Made by a program: the position numbers and the translations under genes | Notes under the pieces: generated by a model | Told to the model about the DNA's origin: nothing | Databases searched by the model: none | What the model saw: the letters and a program-made list of their open reading frames with translations, nothing else | In this document: positions 4,777-52,982 of the stretch, one piece after another | Layout of the letters: each line of letters begins with the position of its first letter | Position numbering within the stretch: position 1 is the first letter of the stretch | Source: Shigella phage 2019SD1 | Strand: one strand, 5' to 3' | DNA: 53,145 nucleotides | Sequence record: MT360681

Positions 4777-5724
4777 ATGGAGGAAGAAATTCCGCCGTCT
4801 ATGGAAAAAGAAAAATTTGATCAGCTAGATGCGGATATTGTTTCCAGCTATCTGGCTACTCGCGGCGTTAAGGGTGATGCTTCTGATATGGGTATCTGGA
4901 CTGCGCAAGAGCTTCACAAGATCCGCTCAGCTGCTTACGAGAAAGAGTATCCGGCAGGTTCTGCGCTTCGTGTATTCCCAGTAACTAATGAGCTTTCTGA
5001 TACTGATAAGACTTTTGAATATCAGATGTTTGACAAGGTTGGTTACGCAAAAATTATCGCTGATTACACCGATGACCTGCCTACCGTTGACGCGCTGATG
5101 TCTAGCGAATTCGGTAAAGTGTTCCGCTTGGGTAACGCGTTCTTGATCTCAATTGACGAAATCAAGGCTGGTCAGCGCACTGGTAAGAGCCTTTCCACTC
5201 GCAAGGCAAACGCAGCGCAAAACGCTCATGATCAGGAAGTTAACCGCACGGTGTTTAAGGGTTCAAAGCCGCACAAGATTATTTCAGTTTTCGATCATCC
5301 TAACTTAACCAAGATTCCATCAACTGGATGGTTGAGCAACGATGAGAACACCAAGTTCCTGAAACGGCTTCGGGCGATCTTGAAAAGGCTATTGAAACTA
5401 TCGAGAAGATCACTAATGGTCAGCACCGCGCAACAAATATCCCGCAAGGTTCTTTCCGTTCGAATGGAAAACACCACTGAAAGTTATCTGGAATACTTCC
5501 AGAAACAAAACAGCGGAATCACCATTGACTCAATCGCAGAGCTTGAGGATATTGATGGCACTGGAACGAAAGGTTGCACGGTATATGAGAAAGACCCGAT
5601 GAACATGTCTATCGAAATTCCAGAAGCATTTAACATGCTTCCGGCGCAACCAAAAGATCTGCATTTCAAAGTTCCGTGCACTTCAAAATGTACTGGTCTG
5701 ACGATTTATCGTCCTTTACGCTAG
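4777..5724 (+). CDS. Major capsid protein (probable), with an internal frame disruption near 5360-5450
   Basis: 315-aa ORF in head module; sequence character of phage major head proteins; an alternative frame reads ..SGDLEKAIETIEKITNGQHRATNIP.. through the region where the main frame looks scrambled. Confidence 0.45.
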   Translation: MEEEIPPSMEKEKFDQLDADIVSSYLATRGVKGDASDMGIWTAQELHKIRSAAYEKEYPAGSALRVFPVTNELSDTDKTFEYQMFDKVGYAKIIADYTDDLPTVDALMSSEFGKVFRLGNAFLISIDEIKAGQRTGKSLSTRKANAAQNAHDQEVNRTVFKGSKPHKIISVFDHPNLTKIPSTGWLSNDENTKFLKRLRAILKRLLKLSRRSLMVSTAQQISRKVLSVRMENTTESYLEYFQKQNSGITIDSIAELEDIDGTGTKGCTVYEKDPMNMSIEIPEAFNMLPAQPKDLHFKVPCTSKCTGLTIYRPLR

Positions 5725-6125
5725 TGCTTATTACTGGCTTGAAAAATCTGATTAATCGTATAACATTTGGGAATCCTTAACTGGATTCCCTTTTTATGGA
5801 GGTTATGAAATGGCTAAAGAAAAACTGTAACGCTAAAGGTTTCCGGCGTGTGTCTTATCATTGTTGATGGTGAGCATCATCATCCGTAAAGAGTTTGACG
5901 TAGAAGAATCAAAATTGAAAACAAGCGCGTTTGAATATCTAATTGCAAAAGGCGATCTGGAGGTTAAAGACAACTCCGCATTGAATGAAGAAATCAAACA
6001 GAAAGCAGCAAGCAAACGTAAAAAGACCCGCGAGAGGGCAAGAGCAAAGCCGAACTTGAAGACGGCGGCATCTATTAATAAAGAGGGCGCTATAAGCGCC
6101 CTTTGTCATATCTGGAGGAAACACA

Positions 6126-6569
6126 ATGGTTGATGAATTTTTCACTGACGCAGAAATCACGCAGCAAATCGTGAAATTGGCGCCACCGATGAAGCAGATT
6201 GATCCAGATTTAATGGAGGCATGGATTGATCTTGCAAAGGAATTTGTTTGCAAGAAGCGGTTTAAAGAATCATATCCCAAAGCGGTTGCTCTTTATACGT
6301 TGCACCTTATGACGCTTGACGGAGCGATGAAGCAAGAAGGGAAAGCGGTTGATGAATTTTTCACTGACGCAGAAATCACGCAGCAAATCGTGAAATTGGC
6401 GCCACCGATGAAGCAGATTGATCCAGATTTAATGGAGGCATGGATTGATCTTGCAAAGGAATTTGTTTGCAAGAAGCGGTTTAAAGAATCATATCCCAAA
6501 GCGGTTGCTCTTTATACGTTGCACCTTATGACGCTTGACGGAGCGATGAAGCAAGAAGGGAAAGCGTAG
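6126..6569 (+). CDS. Hypothetical head-tail connector-like protein; exact tandem 219-bp duplication (6129-6347 and 6348-6566)
   Basis: ORF with 73-aa unit repeated twice in frame. Confidence 0.3.
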
Positions 6570-6633
6570 AGAGTTACTCTCGGCGCGTGGCATCATTTTC
6601 CTGACTGGTGAATTTAGTCAGACTTTTGATCGA

Positions 6634-7130
6634 GTGTCAGGCGAATCTAGCGGAAAAGAGATCAGGCAAACTCCGTGGGGTAAAATGTATGAAACGTTAA
6701 ATCGCAAAAAGGCGGCGGATTTGGCCTTTTACTGGATTTCGGAGGCGCTGCAAATGAACTATAACGAGATCGCAAGAATGGCAACTGAAGGAATAAACTT
6801 CTTCAGTGATGGCAACGGTGAGTTTAAGTGCATAACGCAGCGTGGAAGCGTTGAAATCATCGGAGGCGAAGAAGTAGAAAAGCCAGAGATCAGTGTAATG
6901 ATTAAAGGTTTAATTCGTTCCCCAAAATTCCGCGAGGTTGACGGAGAGACAATACGAGTAACCGATAAGTTGGGAGTTTTAACAACAAGTTTGAAATTAA
7001 GAACGGGTATCATATTGATGTTGATGGTGAATTATATGTTGTAGTTGAAGCAAGGCCAATCAGACAAACAAATGTCACTGTTGCTTATCGGCCTATTTTG
7101 AGAAGGATTTCCGTACATGGCTAAAAACTA
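6634..7130 (+). CDS. Hypothetical head-tail adaptor-like protein (frame disrupted near 7000)
   Basis: ORF 6634-7044 plus better-reading continuation in another frame to about 7130. Confidence 0.25.
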
Positions 7131-7816
7131 CACGATAAGGAATTTCACGGCAACATTGATGCGTGGATAAACGCCGTTGATAATGGCCTGAAAGATTGCG
7201 TGGAGTTGTTCGCCGAAAAGTACACACAGATTTGGTTAAGCGTTCTCCGGTTGATACTGGTCGTTACCGTGCAAACTGGCAGGTAACAGCAAACAAGCCG
7301 CCATTGTATGCGCTTAACCAGTACGATAAGCACGGCGACAAAACTATCGCGGAAGGAAAGCGCGCCATATACGCGATTTTACGAGTTAAGCGTTCTCCGG
7401 TTGATACTGGTCGTTACCGTGCAAACTGGCAGGTAACAGCAAACAAGCCGCCATTGTATGCGCTTAACCAGTACGATAAGCACGGCGACAAAACTATCGC
7501 GGAAGGAAAGCGCGCCATATACGCGATTTTACGAGGTGGTGGCGCAGTAAGAGCCATTTATTTTTCTAACATGCTTATTTATGCTAACGCGCTTGAGTAC
7601 GGTCATTCAAAACAAGCGCCAGCGGGTGTACTTGGGATTGTAGCGGTTAAGTTGAGATCTTATATGGCTGAAGCAATAAAAGAGTCGAGGGCTAAAATGC
7701 ACTATGAATTAATGCTATCGGCGCGTAAAGCGCTGGCGACTGAATACGAAAGCAGATTCATGATCGCTTATGAGAACGTAGAGTTTACGCCACCGGTGAC
7801 GGTTCGCCGTGGTTGA
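7090..7816 (+). CDS. HK97 gp10-like tail/neck component; exact tandem 150-bp duplication (7235-7384, 7385-7534)
   Basis: Motif ..VDTGRYRANW.. and ..IYANALEYGH.. resembling HK97 gp10 family; N-terminus in a different frame suggests indels. Confidence 0.4.
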
Positions 7817-9043: not shown

Positions 9044-9412
9044 ATGTCAAAAATGAAATTGACGATTGGGCCGCTTCCTGACTTTAAGTTACCAGTGAAA
9101 TTTGCAATGCCTAACGGAGAAGATCAAACAATTATCTTCACAGTTCGCCACCGCAAAACAAGTGAGATTCACGAGCGATACACGTCAGATACTCCAATGA
9201 GCGATGTTGAAATGATCACCTTCCTTGCTTCTGGTTGGAATCTTGATGATGAATTTAACGAAGAAAATATTAAACAGCTTCTTGATTACTACCCAGCAAC
9301 AGCAATCGGGTTAACTAGCGCATACATGAAAGCGCTTGCGGGGCAGCGAGTAAAAACTAAAAAGGGCGGTTTACCTGTTTTATCAGAAACCGCCGACAGA
9401 TGCAGAGCTTGA
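9044..9412 (+). CDS. Tail assembly chaperone (lambda G-like)
   Basis: ATG after AAGGGAAAG RBS; ~120-aa acidic protein immediately upstream of tape measure gene; A-AAA-AAG heptamer near 3' end. Confidence 0.5.
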   Translation: MSKMKLTIGPLPDFKLPVKFAMPNGEDQTIIFTVRHRKTSEIHERYTSDTPMSDVEMITFLASGWNLDDEFNEENIKQLLDYYPATAIGLTSAYMKALAGQRVKTKKGGLPVLSETADRCRA

Positions 9413-9632
9413 GGCTGTTGGCCTTACAAGGGCAGACTATGAAGGAGAAGATCCGCCAGAGGTTATATTTGATGAAAGCATGATGCAATCATGGGATATA
9501 TTTTGCGCAATGCAAACGCAATGGAGATGTTCAGGCGGTGGCGCTTACGGATTTGATTATAATGTCTTGCCTATGCTTTTGAGATTTACAAGGTTGAGGA
9601 TCGCGAGATGTCAGAACAATACGCAGGCTTGA
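9375..9632 (+). CDS. Tail assembly chaperone T-domain-like extension (frameshift product, GT-like)
   Basis: Alternative frame reads ..PTDAELEAVGLTRADYEGEDPPEVIFDESMMQSWDIFCAMQTQWRCSGGGAYGFDYNVLPMLLRF.. resembling lambda gpT-type domains; overlaps end of G-like gene and start of tape measure. Confidence 0.35.
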   Translation: MFYQKPPTDAELEAVGLTRADYEGEDPPEVIFDESMMQSWDIFCAMQTQWRCSGGGAYGFDYNVLPMLLRFTRLRIARCQNNTQA

Positions 9633-12286
9633 CGCTTGGGGTTGATGTATCTCAACTCAACAATGCTGTAAAGTCTTTGCAGCAATTCAAAAAGGCAAAC
9701 GACGACGCAAAGGGAAGCGTTGAGAACTTTGTTGATTCAGAGGTTGTTGCAAGGCAAAGAGCTAAACAATTGGCTGAGGAATTGGCGAAGCAGAAACAGG
9801 AATTTAAAGCAATTCAGTCTGCAATAGATCCAACAGCCAGCAAGATGGATAAGTTGCGTCAGGCTGCGACACAGCTTGATGCACTATGGAAAAAGGAATT
9901 GTGCCGGATGATACATTCTTTGAATCCGGATGATACATTCTTTGAATTAGGTTCAATTCTTGAGACACAGCAAAACAAGCTGATCGCAACGAAAAAGGCG
10001 CTAACAGAAGAAGGCCGAGCGGCGATTGAGGAAGCAAAGAATAAAGCGGGGCAGAGGCTGAGGCCAGAAAGTTCATTGCGGCATTACAGGCACAAGCAGA
10101 CGCAGCGGAAAAACAAAATCAGAGCTTGTAGAAATGAGAGCCGCACAACTTGGAGTAGAGCCGCACAACTTGGAGTTAGTGCTGAGGCAGCGCCATTTAT
10201 TGCAAAAATGAAGGAGCAGGAAAAACAAGCCTCAAAACTTGGCGTTTCTATGGGGCAGTACAAGCAAGCAATGGCGCAATTACCAATGCAGATCACTGAC
10301 GTTGTTACTTCTCTTGCTTCAGGAATGCCAGTATGGATGGTCGCAATCCAGCAGGGTGGACAGATCAAGGACTCATTCGGTGGTGTTGCGAATACGTTCA
10401 AAGCACTAATGACATTTGTCACGCCGTTAAGTGTAGGAATGACGGCGCTGACTGGTGCTCTTGGTTATGCTGCATATAATGCATACAAAACAAATGCACA
10501 ACTGAAGGAGATCACAAAACCGTTCAGGGGTAACTGGTCTTTCTGGTCAGAACAATACGCAGGCTTGACGCTTGGGGTTGATGTATCTCAACTCAACAAT
10601 GCTGTAAAGTCTTTGCAGCAATTCAAAAAGGCAAACGACGACGCAAAGGGAAGCGTTGAGAACTTTGTTGATTCAGAGGTTGTTGCAAGGCAAAGAGCTA
10701 AACAATTGGCTGAGGAATTGGCGAAGCAGAAACAGGAATTTAAAGCAATTCAGTCTGCAATAGATCCAACAGCCAGCAAGATGGATAAGTTGCGTCAGGC
10801 TGCGACACAGCTTGATGCACTATGGAAAAAGGAATTGTGCCGGATGATACATTCTTTGAATCTGCAATTTGCGAAGAACACCTATGAGGATATAGGAAAG
10901 ATCGTAAAAGATGCGAATAAGGATATGGCGGAACGAGCAGCACGCATCGACAGAGAAAACCTTTCCTTAAACAGAGTTCGAGCGGCGCAAGAGGCTTTAA
11001 ACAAAGCCATAGAGGATCAGAAGAACGTAGCAAGGACAGCAGACGAAGAGTTGAAAAACGAGCGGCTGAGAACGTTGAGTTCAGGCGAAAAGAGCTTGAA
11101 GAGGCGAAGAAGGCGCAGCAGCAAAGGAGAAAGTTGGCGGAGTTGTAAAAGCACCAACAGAGCAGCTGCAAAAGAAAAGGCCGAGATAGGCGATCAGATT
11201 GTTTTGCAACAGAGAAAGAACAAGCAATACCGGACGGGCTTAAATTCATTCAGCAAACTTCAGATGCCATTGATGCTAAACTTGCGACAGTCTGGAGCTA
11301 CAGATATGCAAATCAAGCGAGAGCTTGAGTTGAAGAAGTTGCGAACTGATTATGTTGCTGGCGGGGTAGTATCGACGATGAAATTTATCAGCAGATGGAA
11401 GCAAAGCGATATGTACGGCAACGTGCAAGATATTGCAAGCGAGGCGCTCAACGGTCTAACCAACCAAATGGCTACATTCCTTGCAACAGGCAAGGCGAAC
11501 TTTAAGAGCTTCGCAACGTCAATCATCCAAATGATTATCCAGATGATCACGAAGATGGTTATCTTTAATGCCATATCTGGTGCGATTGGCGGTGACACTT
11601 GGACGATTGGAAGCCTTCTTAAAATGTTGGATTTGCAACTGGTGGATACACTGGCGACGGCGGGAAGTATGAGCCAGCAGGTGTTGTCCATAAAGGCGAG
11701 TTTGTCAACGAAGGAGGCCACGAAGCGGATCGGAGTTGGAAATCTTTACAAAATGATGCGCGGTTATGCAAATGGCGGCGTTGTTGGTGGCACTTCATAC
11801 ACTGGCGGCGGAATTTCATCAGGAGCAACAAACCTTAATATTGGTGGGATTAGCGTTGATATTAACAACGGAAACGATCCAAAAGGGTTGGAGACTGGCG
11901 TAAAAATGATTTTCACTGATATGATTAAGCGTTCCTGTACGCAGGGTGGGGAAGTTTACGAATTTGTTATGTCTAAGCGGGGTGATAGTGAAACTACGAA
12001 GGAGGCCACGAAGCGGATCGGAGTTGGAAATCTTTACAAAATGATGCGCGGTTATGCAAATGGCGGCGTTGTTGGTGGCACTTCATACACTGGCGGCGGA
12101 ATTTCATCAGGAGCAACAAACCTTAATATTGGTGGGATTAGCGTTGATATTAACAACGGAAACGATCCAAAAGGGTTGGAGACTGGCGTAAAAATGATTT
12201 TCACTGATATGATTAAGCGTTCCTGTACGCAGGGTGGGGAAGTTTACGAATTTGTTATGTCTAAGCGGGGTGATAGTGAAACTTGA
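9608..12286 (+). CDS. Tail tape measure protein; contains displaced duplicate (9612-9925 = 10548-10862), tandem 288-bp C-terminal duplication (11708-11995, 11996-12283) and short tandem repeats near 9900 and 10140
   Basis: 892-aa ORF with hydrophobic segment ..[21 protein letters not shown].. typical of tape measure proteins; position after chaperone genes. Confidence 0.7.
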
Positions 12287-21747: not shown

Positions 21748-22338
21748 TTGAAACTATCAGAGCAATTCGACAAGGTTTTACCAGCACTGCATAAGGCGCG
21801 TAGTTTGTTTGTAAAGGTGAAAAGGATAAGCAAAACACGCACCTCAAAACCGTTACGCAACGCTAATGATAACGAGCTAATGTTGATGCAGGACATGATT
21901 GAAAGCGAACAACCAAACAGAATTAAGGTTGAGACAACAGTTCTTCATGTTTCCGGTCAGTGGGTAAAATTCTATGCTGAATTACCAATCGTTAAAAACG
22001 ATCCTCAAGGTGTAGGATCTGCATTCACATACGCGCGTCGTTATGCAGCAGCAGCAGCATTTGGCTTAAGCCGGGCAGACGATGACGCGCAGATTGCCGT
22101 TAAATCTGCGAACGACTGGAAACGTGACATTGAGAAATGCGAAAGCGTGAACGAATTACAAGAAGTGCTTAAGTCAGCATGGAAGGCAAGCGATCCGGCA
22201 AGCAAGCAGGTAATTAAAGAGCATTACGAAAAACGCAAGGCAGAGCTTGAGATCGGAAAAGCACGAGGATTTAATCCAGCGCAACCAAAGCAAAATCTTG
22301 CCTCGCCAGAAGTTGACACAAAAACGACGAGCAAGTAA
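21748..22338 (+). CDS. Single-strand annealing protein, Erf-like
   Basis: Segment ..[20 protein letters not shown].. resembles the conserved core of ERF family proteins; N-terminal part may be frame-disrupted. Confidence 0.45.
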
Positions 22339-22372
22339 AATCACAAAGTATCACTGATTTTGAATAATTGAC

Positions 22373-22409: not shown

Positions 22410-22934
22410 ATGCATATCATTACTGGTGAGATCCGAAAAGAGCCGCGAGTAAAGCAAATGCCTAACGGCAGCACACTTTATGTGGTTGAACTTTCAGAGC
22501 GATACAAAGATAAAGATGGAAACTGGCAATATACAAACTACAGTTTCTTTTTAATGCGAAAACAGAAGGTCTTAAGGGTTGGTATGATGAGGCGTTCCGG
22601 TTGGCAAGGTTATTTCTGTATCTTGCATATCATTACTGGTGAGATCCGAAAAGAGCCGCGAGTAAAGCAAATGCCTAACGGCAGCACACTTTATGTGGTT
22701 GAACTTTCAGAGCGATACAAAGATAAAGATGGAAACTGGCAATATACAAACTACAGTTTCTTTTTAATGCGAAAACAGAAGGTCTTAAGGGTTGGTATGA
22801 TGAGGCGTTCCGGTTGGCAAGGTTATTTCTGTATCTTGTGACACTCTGCGCATTGAAACGCGAGAACACAACGGAAAGATGTATGACAAAGCAATCAACC
22901 TCCTATGGACTTTGACGACGATATTCCTTTCTGA
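22410..22934 (+). CDS. ssb: Single-stranded DNA-binding protein; exact tandem 213-bp duplication of N-terminal OB-fold segment and frame disruption before the C-terminal tail
   Basis: CAGGAGAATGAATA plus ATG; N-terminal ..TGEIRKEPRVKQMPNGSTLYVVELSERYKDKDGNWQYT.. OB-fold-like; a downstream frame ends ..MDFDDDIPF-stop, the hallmark SSB acidic tail. Confidence 0.55.
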
Positions 22935-27535: not shown

Positions 27536-28470
27536 GATCCAACCAACTCCGGTATCATTACCGCACACGTTGCAGATCGCACCGCCATCGCCTTTTTATC
27601 GCCAAGTTTATCCGTCCATCTGAAGCGATCCTTTCCGCCGCAGTGGGGCTTTTCATTGATGAAGAAGGTAAACAGTCTTTTCTAGCAAAGGACTACACGC
27701 GCGGGTCGGTTGTGAGAACAGGAAACACCGATAAGACTATCTATCTTTGCGTTGACTGGATTGATGCGCAACATATTCACCTTGCAACTGGTCAAGAGGT
27801 TTGGGCCTGCTTCGATGCAACTAATATTGAGATTGTAGCTTACAGGTATAAAGGCAACAGAAGAATGCGAGTTGTCTGTAAGAGTACAGACCGTGACGCT
27901 ATCATAGCTGCCGAGGAAAGAGGTCTTGAAATTATGATGCCGATTAATGATAATTACAGGCAAGGGATAGACAGGAAGGTTTACAAACCTGAATCTCTTC
28001 TCAAGCTAACCGGAGAACCTTACAGCGAAGTGATCAATATTTTGGGCCGTTTTCTTGGGAAAGTTCCACAGGACTATAGAATCAAGGCAAATAAGCGAGT
28101 ATCTCGTGATTCTGGTTATTCGTTTGGGAAACAGGCAAGTCATGAATGCTGCGAGCGCGTTATGTCAAAAACATTAAAATTTGATCGCACGCCGTTAAGC
28201 ACATATGAAGGAATATACCCGCCTGAAGATGGTTATTATGAATGCGGCGTAAAAGATGGTCGATACATTCACGCGTTACCATGTTACCGGTGCATTCAGA
28301 TGAAATTGATGATGAAATGTGCAATGTGCTTTTCATTGATGAAGAAGGTAAACAGTCTTTTCCCCCACTGCGGCGGAAAGGATCGCTTCAGATGGACGGA
28401 TAAACTTGGCGATAAAAAGGCGATGGCGGTGCGATCTGCAACGTGTGCGGTAATGATACCGGAGTTGGTT
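27536..28470. repeat. Segment bounded by ~115-bp perfect inverted repeats (27536-27650 and 28354-28470) plus 34-bp direct repeats (27648-27682, 28320-28353)
   Basis: Exact reverse-complement identity of the two outer arms. Confidence 0.8.
27643..28319 (+). CDS. Hypothetical protein encoded inside the inverted-repeat-flanked segment
   Basis: Open frame across the internal segment; GTG start; no recognisable motifs. Confidence 0.25.
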
Positions 28471-28622
28471 GGATCACAAGATTGATGCTTGCCGTTAAAA
28501 ACTTCATTTGGAAGACCGCAAATACTTTGTAGCGCCTCACGCCACAATCCTTGCATATATGGGAGTACATCTTCCTTTTGATAAACCATAAAGTTTTCGT
28601 TATTCATATACACCTCAAACAA
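28354..28622 (-). CDS. Hypothetical protein, N-terminal part only (frame ends inside inverted repeat)
   Basis: Minus-strand start at 28622; protein-like N-terminus MFEVYMNNENFMVYQKEDVLPYMQGLWREALQ.. Confidence 0.25.
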
Positions 28623-28645
28623 AAAGCCTGACAGATGATAACATC

Positions 28646-29158
28646 ATGCCGGGCATTGTTTTTCTTATTGAGTATTACGGCAGCGTGTCAGCAATGTCAA
28701 GCCGTGCTTTTAGTCCAGCGCGAAAGAACAGCGAATCGCGGTATCAACTGGCAAGATTGACAAACGCACAATCAATGGCAATAACGGAACTCGACGGGGT
28801 AAAGATAAGAAAAGCGCAAGCGCCCTACAGGATACTATGTTTTAAAAGAGCAAAGCGTCTTAACGTTAGCCAGCAAACTGTAAATCAGTGGCGTGTTCGC
28901 GGTATGATTTCAGCCGCTGGCGCTCAAAAGGTGCATAACGATTACAAGAAATATGGTTGTCAAGGCTATCGCGCGTCATTCTGCCGTCCAGACCTGCGAT
29001 TTGATTCCAATGGAAAACCGCTCACAAAGAGATGTGATAAGCGTGAAATGTTGCGAGTAGTAAGAATGTCAGATTATGAACCCGGCGGATTCCTGTATAA
29101 ACCTGAAAGCACTAATTGCCATTATTCATTCTCCAATAGCATTTTTGTTAAACAATGA
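28646..29158 (+). CDS. Hypothetical DNA-binding protein (HTH-like)
   Basis: Segment ..RLNVSQQTVNQWRVRGMIS.. resembles a helix-turn-helix. Confidence 0.3.
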   Translation: MPGIVFLIEYYGSVSAMSSRAFSPARKNSESRYQLARLTNAQSMAITELDGVKIRKAQAPYRILCFKRAKRLNVSQQTVNQWRVRGMISAAGAQKVHNDYKKYGCQGYRASFCRPDLRFDSNGKPLTKRCDKREMLRVVRMSDYEPGGFLYKPESTNCHYSFSNSIFVKQ

Positions 29159-29241
29159 TTTAATGATTGTGTATTATACACGCCAAATGGCATTACTCAA
29201 AGGTTTTAGATATTGCGGCAAGGGTATGCAGACATTGCGAC

Positions 29242-30568
29242 ATGATTCCAAACATTGAAAAGCAAATATCAGCACTTGGTGAAGCGGTAATTAAATCCAT
29301 TCAGGAGCGATTCACTGTTGGCGAGGTTGTGCCTTACCCTTACCAGTGCGTTGCATACGCTGAGATCGCAAAGCGTATGAAAAATTATAAGCATCCATTC
29401 TTTGTTAAAGCGTCCGTATCGGCTGGCAAAACATTGATGTTTGCAATGGTTGCTCACCAGTGCCGGAAAATGGGATTAAAACGCAGGACTGAAGACAAAA
29501 GCGCATACTTTCCGATTGTTGTTGGTGCTGAGGGTACTGTAGTTAATGGACTGTTTAAAGCGCTTGGCGACTATGTTCCGCACGTTATCGGGATTGACGA
29601 GTGTCACCGGTGGATTGGGAAGACCTTGCCGACGCAAACAACGAAGAAAGGCGAAAAAGTACCAAATCCAGATTATGACATAACAAAGGGAAGCAGGAAC
29701 AGAAATACAGAGTTCCTGATTGGCGAGGATGGCTTGCCAATGGAGGGAACAGGCCGCACACAATACACTGTCATTATCATGGAAATGATGCGCCGCTGCC
29801 GGAAAGCATATGGTCATGAACTGCGCATCTTTGGTATGACTGGATCGGAGTTTCGCGGCGTAGTCCCGATCCCGGTAGAAGACAAAAGCAGAAAGGATTC
29901 TGGCGTGAACAGGTTACTAATATTGATACCAACTACCCCAACAAATTTTGGCGACGTTGGCGATCTAGGGTATGACCTTTCAGAGTTTGAGGCATCCAGT
30001 GAGGATGGAGTTGCAGACTTTGACGCTAAAACGCTTCGCAGGATGGAACAAAAATTCATGAAGAAGCGACCATGCAGGAGAAAGGCACTGCAAAGAGGCA
30101 GCGGCAGCATTGCCACCGGAACGACTTACAGGATCATTACTGGTAAAACTGGCGACAACCAGCGCAAGGAGTGGCTGAGGGAAGCATACGAAGGGAAGGT
30201 AAAATACATCTTCCGTGTTCAGGCGCTAACAACTGGCGTTAACGTGCCGTTTTGGGATACGTCTGTTATTCTGCGCAAGATTGGATCGCTAACTTTGCTG
30301 ATTCAGCTTTTAGGTCGCGGAATGCGACTACTTAAGAAGTGGCATAAGGAGCAAGGATTCAAGAAAGATGATCACCTCGTCATGGATTTTTCAGGAACGA
30401 TGGACGAGTTAGGGAGCTTTATTTTGATCCGATACTGGAGCAGGCGCAGCACCAGAAGCGATTCAGGAACGGTAAAGATCCGAAGCCGTGCCCTATTTGC
30501 GGAACTCTTAATAGCTATTATGCTCGCCGTTGTATGCACGCACGTAGACGAAAACGACAACAGATGTG
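29242..30568 (+). CDS. SF2 helicase (DEAH-type) with C-terminal zinc ribbon; frame disruption near 30420
   Basis: Walker A-like ASVSAGKT, DECH box (..IGIDECHRW..), motif VI-like ..LIQLLGRGMRL..; alternative frame ends ..KPCPICGTLNSYYARRCMHARRRKRQQM-stop. Confidence 0.6.
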
Positions 30569-30724
30569 AGTGGTTCTTTAAATTCAGGACATGTGATGAT
30601 CAGATTGACCCGCGCACTAAAAGATTATTCAGCGCGGCTGTGGAACTAAAATCATTGATTGACCCAAACGAGAAGTTAAGCGGAAAGCACTATACAAAAA
30701 CGACTGGTTCGGTGCAATCTTTCT

Positions 30725-31206
30725 CTGTTGACATGACGAAAAACCAGAAAGGGATAATATTTAATTATGAGCTTTCCGATGGCATAGACACTTTCAGGGC
30801 GAGAGAGATATTTTCCCTGAATCTGAAAGCCAAATTTGCCGCGCAAAATGGCGAAGCGTTGCTCTTAAGCACATACCAGATCGCCGTGTTGCTGGCATGG
30901 TGGCGAGCTATCGTAATGCAAGAAAAATCATTGATTGACCCAAACGAGAAGTTAAGCGGAAAGCACTATACAAAAACGACTGGTTCGGTGCAATCTTTCT
31001 CTGTTGACATGACGAAAAACCAGAAAGGGATAATATTTAATTATGAGCTTTCCGATGGCATAGACACTTTCAGGGCGAGAGAGATATTTTCCCTGAATCT
31101 GAAAGCCAAATTTGCCGCGCAAAATGGCGAAGCGTTGCTCTTAAGCACATACCAGATCGCCGTGTTGCTGGCATGGTGGCGAGCTATCGTAATGCAAGAA
31201 AAATAA
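30725..31206 (+). CDS. Small hypothetical protein with hydrophobic C-terminus, present as two exact tandem copies (276-bp unit)
   Basis: Repeated peptide MTKNQKGIIFNYELSDGIDTFRAREIFSLNLKAKFAAQNGEALLLSTYQIAVLLAWWRAIVMQEK. Confidence 0.25.
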
Positions 31207-31303
31207 TGCAATATGTGAATCACATCATGCCACCATCGCGTGTGACTCACCGCAAGACTAGCAAGGAGAAGATAATTTGTACAAGAAGGAGTTTAATTAT
31301 GGC

Positions 31304-31808
31304 AATGACTGATAAAGGCGATTATCTGGAGTTTTACGAAAGAGATCCGACGGATACGCTAAAGGAGGAATCACACCAGATCGGGGCGTTTCAATGGTTA
31401 ACTTATGCTCATCCTGAATTTCTTGCCGGCATACGAAAACGAGGGCGACAAGGGATCGCCACCGCAATGATGGATCAGCAAGCAGGACTCGTTAAGGGAG
31501 TAAGTGATTTCATCATCCTGATTGGATTAAAGGCCGTTATCCGTTCGCGGCAAGCAATGACTGATAAAGGCGATTATCTGGAGTTTTACGAAAGAGATCC
31601 GACGGATACGCTAAAGGAGGAATCACACCAGATCGGGGCGTTTCAATGGTTAACTTATGCTCATCCTGAATTTCTTGCCGGCATACGAAAACGAGGGCGA
31701 CAAGGGATCGCCACCGCAATGATGGATCAGCAAGCAGGACTCGTTAAGGGAGTAAGTGATTTCATCATCCTGATTGGATTAAAGGCCGTTATCCGTTCGC
31801 GGCAATAG
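31304..31808 (+). CDS. Hypothetical nuclease-like protein (VRR-NUC-like, tentative); exact tandem 252-bp duplication (31303-31554, 31555-31806)
   Basis: AGGAG RBS plus ATG at 31304; ..GLVKGVSDFIILIG.. loosely resembles VRR-NUC motif. Confidence 0.3.
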
Positions 31809-31900: not shown

Positions 31901-32653
31901 ATGGCGCAATCCTTCGCGCCTGTTTTAACAAAAGTGCTATTTCATCATGTATTCTACAGCGATCATGAATTGCTTATATCCGTATGTTACGGCAGCGAAT
32001 CCGCCAAGCTCACGCACGCGGCGCAAGAAGGCTTTAGTAAAGAAACTGAAGTGACATTTGAACAAATAGAACGAGAAACATTCATTGGCAATGCTCTTGC
32101 TACTGGAGGCCATTACCGTGCCGTTAAACCAAATCAATATTATAAAGTCACTGGCAACCGCTATAACGGCAGCAACACGCCTGACATTGTGCGCGATTTG
32201 TGGTCCACGCCGTCAGAGGTTGTCGAATGGATGGAAAGCGAATACGGTGATTATGACATCGACGCGGCGGCAAGCAAAGAAAACGCTGTATGTGAAAAAT
32301 TCTACAGCAAGGAAACAAATTGCTTAAAGCGTTGGTGGGGTAGTAATAAGCATATCTGGCTGAATCCACCGTACAGCAATATAACGCCTTTCGTTAAGAA
32401 AGCGATTGAGCAAATGGAGCACAATAACCAGATCGACATTCTGTTGCCTTGCGACACATCGACAGGATGGTTTTATGAGGCACAACAGAAAGCAGCGGAA
32501 ATCATCTGGATCACTGGCGAAGTTTACCGGAGGACGGAACAGAATATTCCCGCACAGGACGCCTTGCTTTCACTTCAGCGCTTACAGGTAAACCAGTGCA
32601 GGAAACAACAAAGGAAGCGTTATTTTCATCATGCGCGAACTGAAAGAAGGTGA
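31901..32653 (+). CDS. dam: DNA N6-adenine methyltransferase (phage Dam family); C-terminus probably frame-disrupted
   Basis: ..WSTPSEV..DIDAAAS..HIWLNPPYS.. motifs (NPPY catalytic motif) as in phage Dam-type methyltransferases. Confidence 0.6.
   Translation: MAQSFAPVLTKVLFHHVFYSDHELLISVCYGSESAKLTHAAQEGFSKETEVTFEQIERETFIGNALATGGHYRAVKPNQYYKVTGNRYNGSNTPDIVRDLWSTPSEVVEWMESEYGDYDIDAAASKENAVCEKFYSKETNCLKRWWGSNKHIWLNPPYSNITPFVKKAIEQMEHNNQIDILLPCDTSTGWFYEAQQKAAEIIWITGEVYRRTEQNIPAQDALLSLQRLQVNQCRKQQRKRYFHHARTERR
31921..31942 (-). promoter_or_regulatory. Conserved promoter-like motif copy, leftward orientation, inside start of Dam ORF
   Basis: TGTTTTAACAAAAGTGCTATTT. Confidence 0.3.
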
Positions 32654-32968
32654 GCAGCAGAAAACGCGATACGTTAAGATCAGCGACATTTGCCCGTCTG
32701 TGGCAGAGCGTCGAGCAAGAAAGCGGAGTTAATATCATGCAGAAAGAAAGAAGCGTTTATTTAAATGAAACTGGCGAGTGGTTGCTATTTCGCGCTATGG
32801 TTTGCGAAGCGCTTGATAAAACGATTTCATAAAACCGCTATTAGGTTGCGATCCGTGGGAGTTTACAAGCGCGCTTGACATGAGCTTTGAGGAAACAAGA
32901 AAACTACCGCTTGAAAATGGCATGAGCAGATCGGTAAAGACTTGCAAGAGTTTTACGAATCCGCGTCA

Positions 32969-35040: not shown

Positions 35041-35112
35041 ATTCCTTTTGTGCGTTCAATGGTTAGGATACAGTCAATTAATTGTTGACTTTTATCTACA
35101 GGAGATCTAATC

Positions 35113-35327
35113 ATGAAAGATTTTTAAACGCTGTAACTTCAGGCACTGGCGGCGCGTCAATCACTGGCGCTGTAACTGGTCAAACAACTATTGCAATAGC
35201 CAGCTTGGTTTTGATGGCTGCATTTGGTATGTGGGGCGCTTATCTTCGTTGGCGTGATAGTAAGGCGCTACGTGACGCTCTTGAATGCGGTGATATTAAG
35301 AAAGCTATTGAGATCAGAGGTAAATAA
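35113..35327 (+). CDS. Holin (start codon present but frame interrupted after 4 codons)
   Basis: CAGGAGATCTAATC plus ATG; translation ..GGASITGAVTGQTTIAIASLVLMAAFGMWGAYLRWRDSK.. with transmembrane segment and charged C-terminus. Confidence 0.45.
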
Positions 35328-35935
35328 TGAGTATAAAACAAAGAAACGTACACACAGAGAGAGTGCGATGCGCTACTGGCAAAGCATATCAAGATCGCAA
35401 AGGATGAAGTTGATAAACGTGTAAAGGTTGATATCCCTGATACAATGACCGCTGCGGCTTTTGGCGTTGCTCTTGCTCTTACTTCTCCATTACTGGAGGA
35501 AATAGAAGGAGTAAAACATAAACCGTACAAAGATATTGCTGGAATATGGACGGTTTGCGCCGGAATAACTGGACCTGACGTAATGCCGACCGCTGCGGCT
35601 TTTGGCGTTGCTCTTGCTCTTACTTCTCCATTACTGGAGGAAATAGAAGGAGTAAAACATAAACCGTACAAAGATATTGCTGGAATATGGACGGTTTGCG
35701 CCGGACGCGCAGCGATGTATTCATTCACATACAATGCTGGCACTGGTGCTTTTAGAAATTCAACCATGCTTAAGCTGATTAATAACGGTCGTTATATGGA
35801 AGCGTGCAATCAGTTATGGCGATGGACAAAATACACCAATCCAAAACAGGAAAGAAAGAAACGTCTAAAGGACTGCGCAACCGCCGCGCGGTGGAATTTA
35901 AATATTGCATTAAGGATCTGTAATCATGAGAAAGT
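35327..35935 (+). CDS. Endolysin, GH24 lysozyme-like; tandem ~141-bp duplication (35447-35587, 35588-35710) and frame disruption near N-terminus
   Basis: ..LEEIEGVKHKPYKDIAGIWTVCAG.. matches the E-G..Y.D..G..T.G.G lysozyme catalytic region; C-terminal ..FTYNAGTGAFRNSTMLKLINNGRYMEACNQLWRW.. Confidence 0.55.
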
Positions 35936-36026
35936 TATCAGCAATCGCGATCGCTGTTATTTAATATGCGTGGTTGTGTTAATTGTGCTGATTTGTCTTT
36001 ACTGGAGAGAAGAAAAGGAGGCTTAA
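35927..36026 (+). CDS. Small membrane protein (possible spanin fragment)
   Basis: ATG at 35927 overlapping end of endolysin; hydrophobic stretch; frame interrupted. Confidence 0.2.
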
Positions 36027-36040: not shown

Positions 36041-36280
36041 TTCAATTCTCTTTACAGTAACCAACAAAACGCCGTCATCATCACACAAATTATGCTCTGA
36101 TATGTTAAACGCTCGCATGTCAGAATGAATGAGCGTTAACATTGCGTGCATGAAGTCTTCATGTGAGATTTGAGAAGTAGCGCAAAACTTAAGAATTTCA
36201 TCTATCAGTTTACTTTCCATGATTTTCATGATAACCAAGTTTAGCCTCTGCTTGTTCTCTTGCCATAATTGCATCATCAA
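36038..36280 (-). CDS. Hypothetical protein (80 aa)
   Basis: Minus-strand ORF ending at the bidirectional terminator. Confidence 0.4.
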   Translation of the reverse strand: MMMQLWQENKQRLNLVIMKIMESKLIDEILKFCATSQISHEDFMHAMLTLIHSDMRAFNISEHNLCDDDGVLLVTVKRIE

Positions 36281-36324
36281 TGCTTGAAAATAATCCTAAA
36301 TGAACACTCTTACCTTTATCATAT

Positions 36325-36996: not shown

Positions 36997-37500
36997 CTTC
37001 ATCGCTCATTTCTCCGATCCGTAAAACATCCCTAACCCATTCGTTTTGCATACCTTCCGGGCTGTAAAGTTCAAACGAGAAAGGTCGATTTGCGGATCCT
37101 TTCTTACACCAGAACTTTCCATCAACTCCATCTGCTGCATTCAGGAACTGAACTGAGCGAGCAATGTTGCGCGCCAACTTTCCAACAACATCAACATCAT
37201 TGCCAAGAGAAATTACAGGGTAGCGATCATTTCCGTTATTAACATCATTAACCTCACCCCAAAAGCTGGACGATTGACGGTATCCGTTTGCCTGAATGGA
37301 CACGCGCACCGGAGACAATCCTTGTGCATCAGCTAATTCGATAATTTGTTTTGGTGTTAGTTTGTTGGTTTCAAACGAAAAATTCGAGTTGATGGAAAGT
37401 TCTGGTGTAAGAAAGGATCCGCAAATCGACCTTTCTCGTTTGAACTTTACAGCCCGGAAGGTATGCAAAACGAATGGGTTAGGGATGTTTTACGGATCGG
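36997..37500. repeat. Fold-back structure: ~95-bp perfect inverted repeats (36997-37090 and 37405-37500) flanking a ~315-bp segment that codes on the minus strand
   Basis: 37405-37500 is the exact reverse complement of 36997-37090; best reading frame of the enclosed segment is on the minus strand whereas the continuing gene is on the plus strand. Confidence 0.8.
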
Positions 37501-38747
37501 AGAAACTTGGACGCTTCACGGTTGAGTATCACGGAACGGATCAGCCGACCGCTCTTTATGTTGTCACAAGCCAGCCTCCTTCAACTGGTAAATCTGCCGT
37601 TAACAGCCCGGCACTTGCTCCAATGGTTGCAGAAGTAGAAAGAATTAACGATCAGCGAAAGAAGGAAAGAAAAAGATTCAGGCAAAGTTGGCAGGTCTTG
37701 CAAAAGAGACTTGGACGCTTCACGGTTGAGTATCACGGAACGGATCAGCCGACCGCTCTTTATGTTGTCACAAGCCAGCCTCCTTCAACTGGTAAATCTG
37801 CCGTTAACAGCCCGGCACTTGCTCCAATGGTTGCAGAAGTAGAAAGAATTAACGATCAGCGAAAGAAGGAAAGAAAAAGATTCAGGCAAAGTTGGCAGGT
37901 CTTGCAAAAGAGAAGCAAAACATACATTAGCGCCGCCAACGCTTCTGGCTATGCTGGTGATGATGCTGAAATGGGTAAACTAATCGAGATCATCACTCGA
38001 CACGGCAAGGCTAATAAGGGGATCTTGAATGTGCGCGCCATATATGAGGCTGCACGAAAAGTTAAGCCGTTTGTTGGTCAGGCTGGCGTAATGAAGCGTA
38101 TGGAAACGCAACTGCTGCCGATGCTTGAAGAAAGAAATTATATTTGTGTGATTAATGGCGTTGTTTTTGTAAATCCAACATTGCTGGGGAGTGAATCAAA
38201 CATCCAGCTTAAGATCAGCAAATCAGCAATGCGAGTTCTTAACATGGCTCGTCAGGAGATGGAACCGCACCTTGCTGATGGAGGAAAGTATTCGCATACA
38301 ATGCTGCGCGGCGCGCTTGGCAAAATGGATAAGCAGGTGATCAGGATTGCTTCAGTTTTGCACACTATCCGCAACTGGTTTAATCGGCGGATACCCTCAA
38401 AAGTCGAAAGAGATCTGAAAGCATGGGATCACGGTCATGTTTCTATAGCTCGTGCAAACGCTGACAACAATATGAGTTTTAAAGCTCTTGGCTGTATGGC
38501 GGTAATTGCCCGTGATGAAACAATCAATGCCATCATGGATGCAGGATCGCGCGGTATCGGTGTGAGTGAGCGTTATTTGCTTGTGCGTGAGGAATCATTT
38601 TGTGACATCGTTTTCCCTGTGTCCGACACCACGCCGGAAGGACTTGCAAGAATCAACAATCGCCGGGGTAACTTTGCTGTGATTTCAGACGAGGCAACGA
38701 GTATTAACAGCCTTATTGATGATAACTCCTTTTTGATGCGGCAATAA
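37500..38747 (+). CDS. Putative replication protein with P-loop-like motif (primase/helicase-type, tentative); tandem 204-bp duplication (37506-37709, 37710-37913); native N-terminus probably lies in the inverted segment upstream
   Basis: ..VVTSQPPSTGKSAV.. Walker A-like; long ORF in replication region. Confidence 0.3.
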   Translation, partial: EKLGRFTVEYHGTDQPTALYVVTSQPPSTGKSAVNSPALAPMVAEVERINDQRKKERKRFRQSWQVLQKRLGRFTVEYHGTDQPTALYVVTSQPPSTGKSAVNSPALAPMVAEVERINDQRKKERKRFRQSWQVLQKRSKTYISAANASGYAGDDAEMGKLIEIITRHGKANKGILNVRAIYEAARKVKPFVGQAGVMKRMETQLLPMLEERNYICVINGVVFVNPTLLGSESNIQLKISKSAMRVLNMARQEMEPHLADGGKYSHTMLRGALGKMDKQVIRIASVLHTIRNWFNRRIPSKVERDLKAWDHGHVSIARANADNNMSFKALGCMAVIARDETINAIMDAGSRGIGVSERYLLVREESFCDIVFPVSDTTPEGLARINNRRGNFAVISDEATSINSLIDDNSFLMRQ

Positions 38748-50623: not shown

Positions 50624-50649
50624 TACCCGCCAAATGGCGGGTTTTTATT
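50624..50649 (+). terminator. Rho-independent terminator closing the early gene block
   Basis: CCCGCC-AAATG-GCGGG followed by TTTTTATT. Confidence 0.6.
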
Positions 50650-50809: not shown

Positions 50810-51250
50810 ATGACAAAGGCGCACAAGTACACGCCGGAACAGGTATTTGATCTGGCTGTGCGTTACTTTACGTGGGCCGAGGAAAACCATATAGAGGCTG
50901 CGGAAACTGCATCCTTTCAGGGTGACGTATACGAAAGCAAGATTCACAAGCCGCGCGTGTTCACCTTAAATGGATTCCGCTTATTCGCTGGCCTTTCTGC
51001 TTCCGTACTTGAAAAATGGCGACGTGAGCGAGGATTCAGCGAGGTTATGGACTTTATTGACGGCGTTGTTTATGAGCAAAAATTCCAGCTTGCCGCAAAC
51101 AATATTGTTAACGCCGGATTCATTGGTAAGGAGATCGGCATTGAAAAGCCAGCTACCGTTACCATTGAGAATAACACAAGCGCCAGCGTTGACGCTGTAA
51201 CGGCGGATGAAGTCAAAGAGGCGGTAATTGACATTCTGGAGAAGATATAA
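50810..51250 (+). CDS. Terminase small subunit (probable)
   Basis: 146-aa ORF immediately upstream of large terminase; N-terminal ..YTPEQVFDLAVRYFTWAEEN.. typical of small terminase DNA-binding regions. Confidence 0.5.
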   Translation: MTKAHKYTPEQVFDLAVRYFTWAEENHIEAAETASFQGDVYESKIHKPRVFTLNGFRLFAGLSASVLEKWRRERGFSEVMDFIDGVVYEQKFQLAANNIVNAGFIGKEIGIEKPATVTIENNTSASVDAVTADEVKEAVIDILEKI

Positions 51251-51257
51251 TGCTGAT

Positions 51258-51520
51258 ATGATCAAGATCAATCCCGTTCAGCGAGATAAAGATAAGGTTA
51301 CGCGAGCAATGGACGCAGCGCCAGTAATGCGCGCCGGACGCGTGGCACTTCCAGAATATCATCCTATGCTGGCTGAGATACTCGCTGAAGTTGCGGCGTT
51401 CACATTCGATGATTCGCATCCTCATGATGATATTGTTGATAACATCATTGATGCTGTTAACATTGAAATGAACATGGCAGATGATCCGGTAGGAAGAATG
51501 AAAAATTGGCAGGTTTGCGG
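51258..51520 (+). repeat. Displaced copy of the large-terminase C-terminal coding segment (more complete than the copy at 52796-52980), fused to a promoter-motif copy
   Basis: 51258-51520 matches 52796-52980 except that the downstream copy lacks ~75 bp; occupies the position where the terminase N-terminus would be expected. Confidence 0.75.
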
Positions 51521-51523
51521 AAC

Positions 51524-51545
51524 AAATAGCACGAATCGACAAACC
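51524..51545 (+). promoter_or_regulatory. Conserved promoter-like motif copy (variant) upstream of large terminase reading frame
   Basis: AAATAGCACGAATCGACAAACC. Confidence 0.3.
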
Positions 51546-51589
51546 AATATAGGAAGACTTAACAGCGGCGCAAAACGCGCCGTTAAGGA

Positions 51590-52982
51590 AATGAGCGAAT
51601 ATTCATTCGAAAAGATGATCCGCATTTGGTTTCAACTTCTCGGGGCAAAGGTTCTTAGGAAACTGGCATTTCAGTTACCTATGCAGCGAAGTGCAGGAGC
51701 TATGGCCGGAAAGCTGGCAAAGGCGAGCGCAAAGGACTTGATTGTAACCGATGTCGGCAAGGTTAAATTGCAAGTTAACTCGCGTTCTATCGGTGGTCAG
51801 GTTACTGGTCTGCGTGGCGGCTACATGGATGATGGATTTACTGGTATGCTGGTTCTTGATGATCCAGACAAGCCGGATGACATGCTTTCTAAGGTGAAGC
51901 GCGAAGCCGGACACATGCGCCTAAAGAACACGGTGCGATCACGTCGAATGAAGGACACAACGCCAATCGTAATGGTCCAGCAACGGCTACACGTCAATGA
52001 TTCAACATGGTTCATGACAAACGGCGGCATGGGCGGCATCCAGTTTAAGGTGGTCAGTATTCCGGCGCTCGTTACTAAGGAATATCGCGAAACGCTTCCT
52101 GATTGGTTAAAGCCTGAGTTTGATCGCGATGTTTTATCCAGTAAGCCAGTAATGATTGATGGTGTTGCTCATTATTCATTCTGGCCTGCTAAGAAAGCGC
52201 GGAGGAATTACTTGCACTTCGAAATGCTGATCCGTACACGTTCGCCAGTCAGTATCAGCAACAGCCTGTTGCGCTTGGCGGTAACGTGTTTAAAACGGAG
52301 TGGTTTCAGTATTACGGCAGCAGCGAGAAATGCACGCTACCAAAACCGGATCGCTTTGAGTATACATTTATCACGGTTGATACCGCGCAGAAAACGGGTG
52401 AGCTTAACGACTACTCCGTATAAAGATCGCGTTTACTTCATTGATGGTGTTCGCGGAAAATGGGAAGCACCAGACCTTGAAACTAATTTTGTTGCGTTCG
52501 TTAATCAGTGCTGGAAGCGTAATAAAGAATGCGGAACGTTGCGAAGGATTCATGTTGAAGATAAGTCATCTGGCACTGGCTTGATTCAGAGCGCAGCGAA
52601 AAAATTATATAAAGATCGCGTTTACTTCATTGATGGTGTTCGCGGAAAATGGGAAGCACCAGACGAAACTAATTTTGTTGCGTTCGTTAATCAGTGCTGG
52701 AAGCGTAATAAAGAATGCGGAACGTTGCGAAGGATTCATGTTGAAGATAAGTCATCTGGCACTGGCTTGATTCAGAGCGCAGCGAAAAATTATGATCAAG
52801 ATCAATCCCGTTCAGCGAGACTGGCTGAGATACTCGCTGAAGTTGCGGCGTTCACATTCGATGATTCGCATCCTCATGATGATATTGTTGATAACATCAT
52901 TGATGCTGTTAACATTGAAATGAACATGGCAGATGATCCGGTAGGAAGAATGAAAAAATTGGCAGGTTTGCGGAACAAATAA
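51590..52982 (+). CDS. Terminase large subunit (N-terminal region uncertain; internal frame change near 52195; 180-bp tandem duplication 52425-52610 approx)
   Basis: ..ADPYTFASQYQQQPVALGGNVFKTEWFQYYG.. and C-terminal ..FTFDDSHPHDDIVDNIIDAVN.. typical of terminase nuclease domain; Walker A-like ..SRGKGS.. only visible in a shifted frame near 51600. Confidence 0.55.

Follow-up and report, generated by a model that had tools for sequence, protein, structure and literature searches.

How the genome of a phage could come to carry frame changes in so many of its conserved genes is the question raised by the record of Shigella phage 2019SD1. The window, meaning the whole stretch of DNA that was analysed, is the entire record MT360681 (53145 bp; UViG_2974632794_000001 in IMG/VR). 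A sequence-only reading had pointed to disruptions in the major capsid, HK97 gp10-like, SSB, helicase, holin, endolysin, Erf-like, Dam and large terminase genes, and alignment to three relatives, pSf-1 (NC_021331), vojen (NC_049824) and herni (NC_049823), places a change that breaks the frame at, or only a few bases from, every disruption so named.

Frame breakage on a Hanrivervirus backbone

Gene content and gene order are common to 2019SD1 and these three Hanrivervirus phages, with block-wise nucleotide identity of 90-100%, and by the measure of similarity and gene order 2019SD1 is itself a Hanrivervirus; NCBI taxonomy lists this T1-like phage as Hanrivervirus hv2019SD1 (Drexlerviridae, Tempevirinae). 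The relatives are mutually collinear and their genes are intact, whereas the window matches them in more than 30 pieces, at 93-95% identity and with 76-96% of the query covered. Of the 80 herni proteins, only 18 can be found in the window as a single in-frame match, as compared to 63 of 80 from pSf-1 and 80 of 80 from vojen, and 259 gaps within coding sequence have a length that is not a multiple of three. Frame breakage on this scale far exceeds chance and natural divergence. Substitutions, on the other hand, look natural: they fall at 2.4%, 1.5% and 10.6% of first, second and third codon positions, a third-position bias reflecting normal purifying selection, with a transition/transversion ratio of 1.37 and an overall pattern that resembles pSf-1 versus herni. 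The window is a Hanrivervirus backbone bearing nanopore consensus errors and re-stitching at the level of ORFs.

Small deletions and the basecalling signature

Events of 1-2 bases, relative to the relatives, comprise 220 deletions and 7 insertions (190 versus 6 for one base, 30 versus 1 for two), and the density of frameshifts is ~1 per 240 bases, or ~4 per kb. About half of the one-base deletions (97/190) fall in runs of five to six, and 24 of the 190 remove the centre base of CCWGG. Not one CCAGG or CCTGG occurs in the 53,145-nt window, against ~115 in each relative, and none of the 109 aligned CCWGG (Dcm) sites is intact; CCGG is twice as frequent as in the relatives, and CCCGG and CCGGG number 32 and 22, as compared to 2 and 1. 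Homopolymer runs of at least 7 are absent from the window, which holds 6 six-base runs versus 57; six-base runs are read as five in 43 of 53 cases, and five-base runs as four in 56 of 164. The homopolymer context that had been proposed from the letters accounts for many of the small deletions, but about a fifth lie instead at Dcm CCWGG motifs.

The phage was sequenced on a GridION with R9.4 chemistry, with Albacore 2.3.1 for basecalling and Canu 1.8 for assembly; the data are Oxford Nanopore only, with no short-read polishing and no mention of Illumina data (PMC8590004). The raw reads are deposited as SRS7234126. In R9.4 data, consensus errors of default, methylation-unaware ONT basecallers concentrate at the Dcm motifs CCAGG and CCTGG, and then at homopolymers (Wick, Judd & Holt 2019, Genome Biol 20:129, PMC6591954). 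This profile shares with 2019SD1 its error contexts, the Albacore 2.3.x basecaller family and an Enterobacteriaceae host; 2019SD1 differs in that every CCWGG is wrong and polishing is nil, giving a frameshift rate that is extreme for a deposited 'complete genome'. The window fits the profile in its Dcm-motif errors, in its shortened homopolymers with a strong deletion bias and in the unpolished platform behind it, and its small indels are typical of nanopore basecalling that takes no account of methylation, an error pattern that in turn suggests that the CCWGG sites were methylated.

Several genes, here and below all on the plus strand unless otherwise noted, illustrate this kind of damage. 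The Erf-like gene (21748..22364) has one-base deletions at 21822, 21844 and 22320 (an A run), and its final 15 codons are out of frame, while the Dam methyltransferase gene (32039..32729) has lost single bases at 32529 (CCAGG) and 32603 and runs through frames 2, 1 and 3 in that order. In the holin gene (35082..35327), a one-base deletion in a T run at 35125, four codons past the native ATG, is accompanied by an ORF that now starts at an upstream TTG. Single-base deletions at 7139 and 7216 (an A run) also affect the HK97 gp10-like tail completion gene (7130..7534), recognized by a PF04883 Pfam match on its herni homologue, in which the 150 nt at 7235-7384 are then repeated exactly and in tandem at 7385-7534.

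Blocks joined at stop and start codons

Duplications of this sort belong to a second kind of damage, which the sequence-only reading had passed over: ~120 junctions at ORF boundaries, with duplications and in-place inversions, where blocks of the genome have been rejoined. At the exact offset, the left block would be followed in the reference by a stop codon in 42 of 121 junction records (5.8 expected, P = 6e-25), and the right block is immediately preceded by ATG, GTG or TTG in 54 of 121 (6.8 expected, P = 6e-35). For 54 of the 116 junctions within long ORFs, a stop would have come within 0-2 codons had the reference sequence run on, and base-level cases include a collapsed ATGA, a removed TAATG and removed TGA..ATG units; 38189/38190, 28002/28003 and 11995/11996 are examples of block junctions. 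About half of the junctions have no clean stop or start signature at the exact offset, either because the rule was inconsistently applied or because ambiguous alignment, and sequence differences between this phage and the three references, obscure it. The window holds 29 exact repeats that are 60 nt or longer, 28 of them with a spacing divisible by three, and none occurs in pSf-1, vojen or herni. Removed stops and starts, together with whole-codon spacing, point to cut-and-paste at the level of ORFs. Several ORF bodies stand twice in tandem (a + b + b), an arrangement that simple concatenation does not predict, and 31 tiles totalling 6.1 kb are inverted in place.

The major capsid ORF (4777..5724) shows how the two kinds of damage combine. 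A one-base deletion at 5365 is followed at 5443 by removal of a 17-nt stretch, TGA-TTCCGCCGTCT-ATG, consisting of a stop, a spacer and a start, and the same 11-nt spacer, TTCCGCCGTCT, turns up again upstream of the gene's ATG, inserted at 4790-4800. The deletions at 5365 and 5443 amount to a net 18 bases, so that the frame is regained after ~27 codons, but the loss of one more base at 5715 brings in a premature stop codon at 5722-5724. At the end of the tape measure gene (11600..12286), an A5 run has lost one base at 11625, and at 11708 GTCATGACG has shrunk to GTCAACG, with loss of both an overlapping TGA stop and ATG start, and a 288-nt ORF body then stands twice in tandem (11708-11995 and 11996-12283). 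In the 584-codon large terminase ORF (51228..52982), the C-terminal block (51258-51551) sits ahead of the N-terminus, single bases are missing at 51501, 51576, 51708 (CCTGG) and 52193 and two bases at 51642, a 20-nt TGA..ATG stretch is gone at 52418, and segments are duplicated and lost in 52604-52821. The portal gene is scrambled along with the terminase, capsid and tail genes.

Replication and lysis genes are similarly affected. The SSB gene (22410..22931) has one-base deletions at 22548 (a T run) and 22599 (CCAGG), its N-terminal 213 nt are tandemly duplicated from near 22624 with the same two errors copied (22761 and 22812), and 137 nt are missing at 22884/22885. The DNA helicase gene (29167..31309; a 679-aa ORF) contains a relocated 31-nt spacer at 29211-29241, lacks a 23-nt TGA..GTG stretch at 29938, carries a 276-nt tandem duplication (30648-31204), and has lost single bases at 29501, 29609 (CCAGG), 29884, 30050, 30118 (CCTGG), 30414, 30619, 30701 and 30815, with ~15 events in all besides the one at 30414. 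The endolysin gene (35345..35962) is assembled from blocks in the order of roughly aa 56-89, aa 7-52, aa 7-46 again and aa 91-162, with N-terminal junctions at 35344/5, 35445/6, 35584-8 and 35705/6 and a one-base deletion in an A run at 35843. Scattered 1-bp indels had been supposed at the sites named, but the disruptions near 22880 in SSB, at the endolysin N-terminus and near 51600 in the terminase are block duplications, deletions or moves instead.

Two regions carry genes that lie on the minus strand in the relatives and read on the plus strand here. Fragments of primase (27648-28002, 28003-28362 and 28363-28476) and of a transcriptional regulator (28722-28849 and 28850-29119), together spanning 27648..29119, are reverse-complemented in place, and this flipping causes minus-strand genes to read plus; a stop or start codon marks each of the junctions at 28002, 28476, 28849 and 29119. 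Similarly, seven fragments flipped in place (37386..38714), one from YdbL and six from a second DNA helicase, occupy one frame within a 483-codon ORF (37296-38747), and the C-terminal block of the helicase, a minus-strand gene in the relatives, stops immediately before its stop codon.

Re-stitching of blocks is why so damaged a genome keeps long ORFs of natural appearance. Open frames of at least 150 codons hold 80% of the bases in the window, as compared to 41%, and at most 53%, in a control of 200 simulations of nanopore-like errors on the herni genome.

Origin of the damage and its consequences

The damage to the record very probably represents two artefacts stacked on a real, viable T1-like Hanrivervirus. 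The first layer consists of basecalling errors: Albacore systematically miscalls CCWGG (Dcm) sites modified with 5-methylcytosine and shortens homopolymers, and, unpolished, this left the ~220 deletions of 1-2 bases. In the second layer, the frameshifted assembly would have been re-stitched by predicted ORF, with fragments placed in coding orientation, the stop of one fragment and the start of the next removed, and the bodies joined into long open frames. Exact codon-unit duplications, the in-place inversion of minus-strand gene fragments, and the disappearance of the spacers between fragments, of which two were put back upstream of a fused gene, would be side effects of this step. The pattern of the second layer is plain in the junctions; its agent would have been a script, an editor or a hand. 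The source paper describes no editing step and does not mention this two-layer anatomy (PMC8590004).

Sequencing error alone, in which unpolished homopolymer indels are joined by Canu mis-assembly of short or chimeric reads, would account for the spectrum of small indels, and a mean read length of only 1.9 kb and a 73,606-bp scaffold, cut to 53.15 kb for an unstated reason (PMC8590004), suggest a concatemeric or messy assembly of a genome of ~51 kb. An assembler is blind to codons, however, yet the junctions coincide with stops and starts (P of 1e-25 to 1e-35), those very codons have been cut out, duplications keep whole-codon spacing in 28 of 29 cases, and the ORF content is well above that of genomes simulated with errors only; error by itself is thus an improbable explanation.

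Far less probable still, with almost no chance of being correct, is that the damage is real biology, either a phage genome in decay or otherwise defective, or programmed frameshifting or recoding at many sites, perhaps along with selection against CCWGG restriction sites. The complete absence of CCWGG superficially resembles restriction-site avoidance, and long ORFs remain, but 2019SD1 is a lytic phage that forms plaques with a burst size of 151 (PMC8590004) even though in the record its genes for portal, terminase, capsid and tail are in disarray. Nearly all indels are deletions in contexts where nanopore basecalling fails (PMC6591954), relatives at 93-98% identity have unbroken genes at every site, the codon-position pattern is that of normal purifying selection, and the assembly is marked unverified by NCBI. 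Programmed ribosomal frameshifting is rejected, as the sequence-only reading had anticipated, since at each of the sites the homologue in herni and in vojen is one unbroken ORF. The -1 frameshifting of the lambda G/GT type, in tail assembly chaperones, is similar in changing frame within a phage structural module, but it uses one conserved slippery site per genome, common to relatives, whereas the sites in 2019SD1 exceed 200, are in no case shared with a relative, and always lie either in a context of basecaller error or at an ORF boundary that was edited. Pseudogenisation, likewise dismissed beforehand, is rejected on the 2.4/1.5/10.6% codon-position pattern, the intact genes of the relatives, the deletion bias of indels in basecaller contexts, and the plaques. 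Finally, a deliberate in-silico perturbation or machine-generated sequence, absent from public data, is suggested by the designed appearance of ORF-preserving, codon-unit scrambling but has a negligible probability, because identical junctions stand in the IMG/VR record of equal length (junction 28-mers match IMGVR_UViG_2974632794_000001 only) and the scrambled ORFs, once translated, agree exactly with 2019SD1 entries in NCBI, RefSeq and UniProt (QJT70535.1, YP_009901396.1 and others).

Basecalling error followed by re-stitching therefore remains the preferred account, and the earlier suggestion of homopolymer-type sequencing error or deliberate perturbation is borne out: the data are nanopore-only and unpolished, and the sequence was very probably also edited at ORF boundaries after assembly. 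Recoding, pseudogenisation and mobile elements have no part in the frame damage, which is an artefact and not a new mechanism. A more speculative extension, to which we give somewhat less than an even chance, holds that the virion DNA is modified with 5-methylcytosine at essentially every CCWGG, such that the miscalls are an accidental read-out of the methylome. The source of the modification could be a divergent cytosine methylase encoded by the phage itself (minus strand, ~39.4-40.1 kb) rather than host Dcm, and a minority of junctions, which lack start and stop signatures and lie in the region of the tail fibre and HNH (23.7-27.4 kb, 36.2-37.0 kb), may represent true mosaicism in an otherwise ordinary Hanrivervirus.

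MT360681 is unsuitable as a reference, and it serves as exemplar for an ICTV species (Hanrivervirus hv2019SD1), with RefSeq protein accessions, UniProt entries and a place in IMG/VR as a complete viral genome; the record was not found in a curated INPHARED copy. Its proteins already carry the NCBI name prefix UNVERIFIED_ASMBLY, yet this flag is silent on the nature of the fault. Published inferences that rest on the artefact include the strand counts (64 rightward and 13 leftward genes), the 60-69% "similarity" of portal, endolysin and VRR-NUC to relatives, the restriction-site counts, and placement as a distinct clade (PMC8590004). The proteins of the record, which are fused, duplicated and in part out of frame, cluster with no others at 90% identity and can thus seed spurious families. 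The test for stop and start codons at junctions and the census of CCWGG motifs and homopolymers provide fast screens for similar records.

Frame disruptions and consensus errors

The sequence-only reading had described scattered single-base frame disruptions in conserved genes between 4777 and 52982. When annotated genes of the relatives pSf-1 (NC_021331) and herni (NC_049823) were translated and searched against the window by tblastn, alongside base-level alignments, a frame-breaking change was found within a few bases of every site that it had listed. Only 18 of 80 herni proteins match the window as a single in-frame hit, as compared to 63 of 80 in pSf-1 and all 80 in a third relative, vojen (NC_049824). 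Several pSf-1 genes are themselves split across frames with respect to herni, including the portal gene (gp62 and gp63), the helicase gene (gp3 and gp4), TerS, Dcm and gp19, which suggests that older sequencing errors are also present in the pSf-1 record.

Among small indels, counted against the best of the three relatives, deletions far outnumber insertions: 190 against 6 for one base, and 30 against 1 for two bases. Homopolymers 5-6 bases long account for 97 of the one-base deletions, and in 24 the base lost is the middle one of CC[A/T]GG, the Dcm methylation motif (CCWGG), which also hosts many two-base deletions. CCAGG and CCTGG are absent from the window, as compared to about 115 occurrences per relative, and not one of the 109 aligned CCWGG sites is unaltered. 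CCGG is twice as frequent, and the CCCGG/CCGGG counts are 32/22 in place of 2/1. Runs of at least 7 bases do not occur in the window and runs of 6 number only 6, versus 57 in the relatives, with 43 of 53 six-base runs shortened to five and 56 of 164 five-base runs shortened to four.

Default ONT basecallers err at Dcm motifs first and in homopolymers next (Wick et al. 2019, PMC6591954). The small-indel profile of the window is the same, and this layer is a textbook example of a known artefact. Dam sites (GATC) show no depletion, with 299 in the window and 272-293 in the relatives. Because every CCWGG site is miscalled while GATC is kept, it follows that 5mC at CCWGG disturbed the consensus with this basecaller and that any 6mA at GATC had no effect. 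Pfam returned no hits for the cytosine methylase of the relatives or for the window ORF at 39387-39842.

Block junctions and probable re-stitching of open reading frames

Errors alone are insufficient to account for the record. In blastn alignments to pSf-1, the window is made up of more than 100 blocks that abut one another, and locally sequence has been duplicated, lost, moved or inverted in place. Despite some 230 frameshifts, its ORF content looks natural: open frames of 150 codons or more cover 80% of the bases, 14 frames have 300 codons or more, and the longest spans 1219. By comparison, herni given nanopore-like errors has 41% of its bases in frames of 150 codons or more (maximum 53% in 200 simulations), and its longest frame averages 402 codons.

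This natural-looking ORF content results from junctions between blocks that lack stops and starts. At 54 of 116 junctions inside long ORFs, uninterrupted reference sequence would have run into a stop within 0-2 codons. At the exact offset, TAA, TAG or TGA stands right after the left block in the reference in 42 of 121 junction records (5.8 expected, P = 6e-25), and ATG, GTG or TTG stands right before the right block in 54 of 121 (6.8 expected, P = 6e-35), with about half of the junctions having no clean stop or start signature at that offset. Individual cases are clear-cut at base level: the sequence GTC ATG ACG, in which a TGA stop overlaps an ATG start, has become GTCA ACG in the window, TAATG has been removed at two places, and stop-spacer-start units of 11, 17, 20 and 23 nt have been excised. 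A search for relocated spacers (n = 4) found two back in upstream of the fused gene and two absent; the 11-nt spacer excised from the capsid gene at 5443 occurs verbatim at 4790, directly ahead of the capsid ATG, and a 31-nt helicase spacer has been re-inserted at 29211-29241. Sequencing error or assembler artefact as the sole cause is contradicted by these codon-aware junctions and fails. Chimeras from MDA or ligation, and reads concatenated in the order in which they map, were rejected as sources of the in-place inversions, since the junctions respect codons and start and stop signals.

The window contains 29 exact direct repeats 60 nt or longer (6.5 kb in total) and the relatives contain none; in 28 of the 29 the copy spacing is a multiple of three. 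Basecalling errors are identical between the duplicated copies, and thus the duplications arose later than the consensus. In-place inversion affects 31 blocks (6.1 kb), mostly fragments of minus-strand genes of the relatives (primase, regulator, second helicase and tail fibre), which read on the plus strand in the window; the published gene strands of 2019SD1 are 64 rightward and 13 leftward (PMC8590004). The helicase pieces share one frame, and the C-terminal piece ends exactly ahead of its stop codon. Where one block joins its own reverse complement lies a perfect 160-nt palindrome, 23844-24003, consisting of two 80-nt arms that are 100% complementary with no spacer, probably a further product of in-place flipping.

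Judged from this pattern, the most likely mechanism is the joining of ORF fragments into long genes. Gene callers would have split a frameshifted Canu contig into many ORF fragments, which would then have been joined in coding orientation, losing the stop codon of the left-hand fragment and the start codon of the right-hand one at each join, to rebuild long genes. A fragment-joining step is not described in PMC8590004. Plain concatenation of gene calls would cover the inversions, overlaps and lost spacers, but fails on the missing start and stop codons and the doubled ORF bodies, and tandem copies of the form a + b + b, which are frequent, lie outside what simple concatenation predicts; it is retained only as the general class of ORF-level re-stitching.

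At 36171-36967, about 800 nt fail to match pSf-1, vojen or herni at the nucleotide level; their amino-acid similarity to gp17, the HNH endonuclease of pSf-1, is ~54%, and they contain a duplicated unit of 181-192 nt (36431-36622 and 36728-36919); this is probably a truly variable HNH region that was later duplicated by editing. The tail-fibre region, 23700-27440, is the most scrambled part of the window, where inverted and repeated blocks abound (such as 26295-26837 with 26895-27437, and 25271-25588 with 25589-25906). Its amino-acid identity to the fibre of herni is just 40-56%, a figure in which real divergence and artefact may both play a part.

Backbone and provenance of the record

By megablast, the window falls in the T1-like genus Hanrivervirus (Drexlerviridae), with 93-95% identity to Shigella phage pSf-1 and Escherichia phages vojen and herni, in 30-38 pieces per match and with no collinear record. 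Substitutions affect codon positions 1, 2 and 3 at 2.4%, 1.5% and 10.6%, with a transition/transversion ratio of 1.37, a pattern nearly equal to that of pSf-1 versus herni. The backbone is therefore genuine Hanrivervirus and not randomised sequence, and the codon-position bias and transition/transversion ratio rule out random simulated mutation.

Real pseudogenisation, recoding or programmed frameshifting also fails as an explanation of the broken frames: the indels lie in basecaller-error contexts, the homologues are intact in relatives, the selection signature is normal, and the phage is viable. The sequence-only reading, which had preferred sequencing error or perturbation to these biological causes, was sound in that interpretation but overlooked both the errors at Dcm motifs and the rearrangement of blocks. 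The tail assembly chaperone locus is the usual site of a conserved programmed -1 frameshift (G/GT type). In the window (9044-9613), the chaperone gene at 9044-9355 has 99-100% identity to the chaperone proteins of relatives, and a second short chaperone-like ORF lies 3' of it in another frame (9480-9596).

Phage 2019SD1 is lytic, with a burst size of 151, and was sequenced on a GridION R9.4, basecalled with Albacore 2.3.1 and assembled with Canu 1.8 without short-read polishing; a 73,606-bp scaffold "revealed" the 53.15-kb genome (Sci Rep 2021, PMC8590004; accession MT360681). Both record ends, window 1-500 and 53024-53145, lie within the portal gene and overlap in part, corresponding to herni portal nt 27791-28316 and 27950-28074, respectively; thus the linear record starts mid-gene in a circularly permuted assembly. 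Scrambling that keeps ORFs and proceeds in codon units would suit a perturbed or machine-generated sequence outside public data, a reading excluded by junction k-mers and proteins that are already public: two 28-mers across odd junctions each match a single public contig, IMGVR_UViG_2974632794_000001, equal in length to the window (53145 bp), and five window ORF translations are exact GenBank, RefSeq or UniProt entries of 2019SD1 (QJT70535.1, YP_009901396.1 and others). The record was not found in the copy of INPHARED, an annotated phage collection, that was searched.

Consequences for related records

The re-stitching layer is unusual among deposited genomes and is a problem of curation, not of biology. 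Its practical value is as a warning, because 2019SD1 is the species exemplar of Hanrivervirus hv2019SD1 and its proteins circulate in RefSeq, UniProt and IMG/VR. NCBI has already flagged the assembly, and its names for 2019SD1 proteins carry the prefix "UNVERIFIED_ASMBLY". Separately, about 20 unannotated records named 'Campylobacter phage', with Campylobacter jejuni given as host, have T1-like genomes of ~50 kb that are ~90% identical to this group of Escherichia/Shigella phages; MG065636, MG065649, MG065657, MG065680 and MG065681 are among them. The Campylobacter host label of these records looks doubtful.
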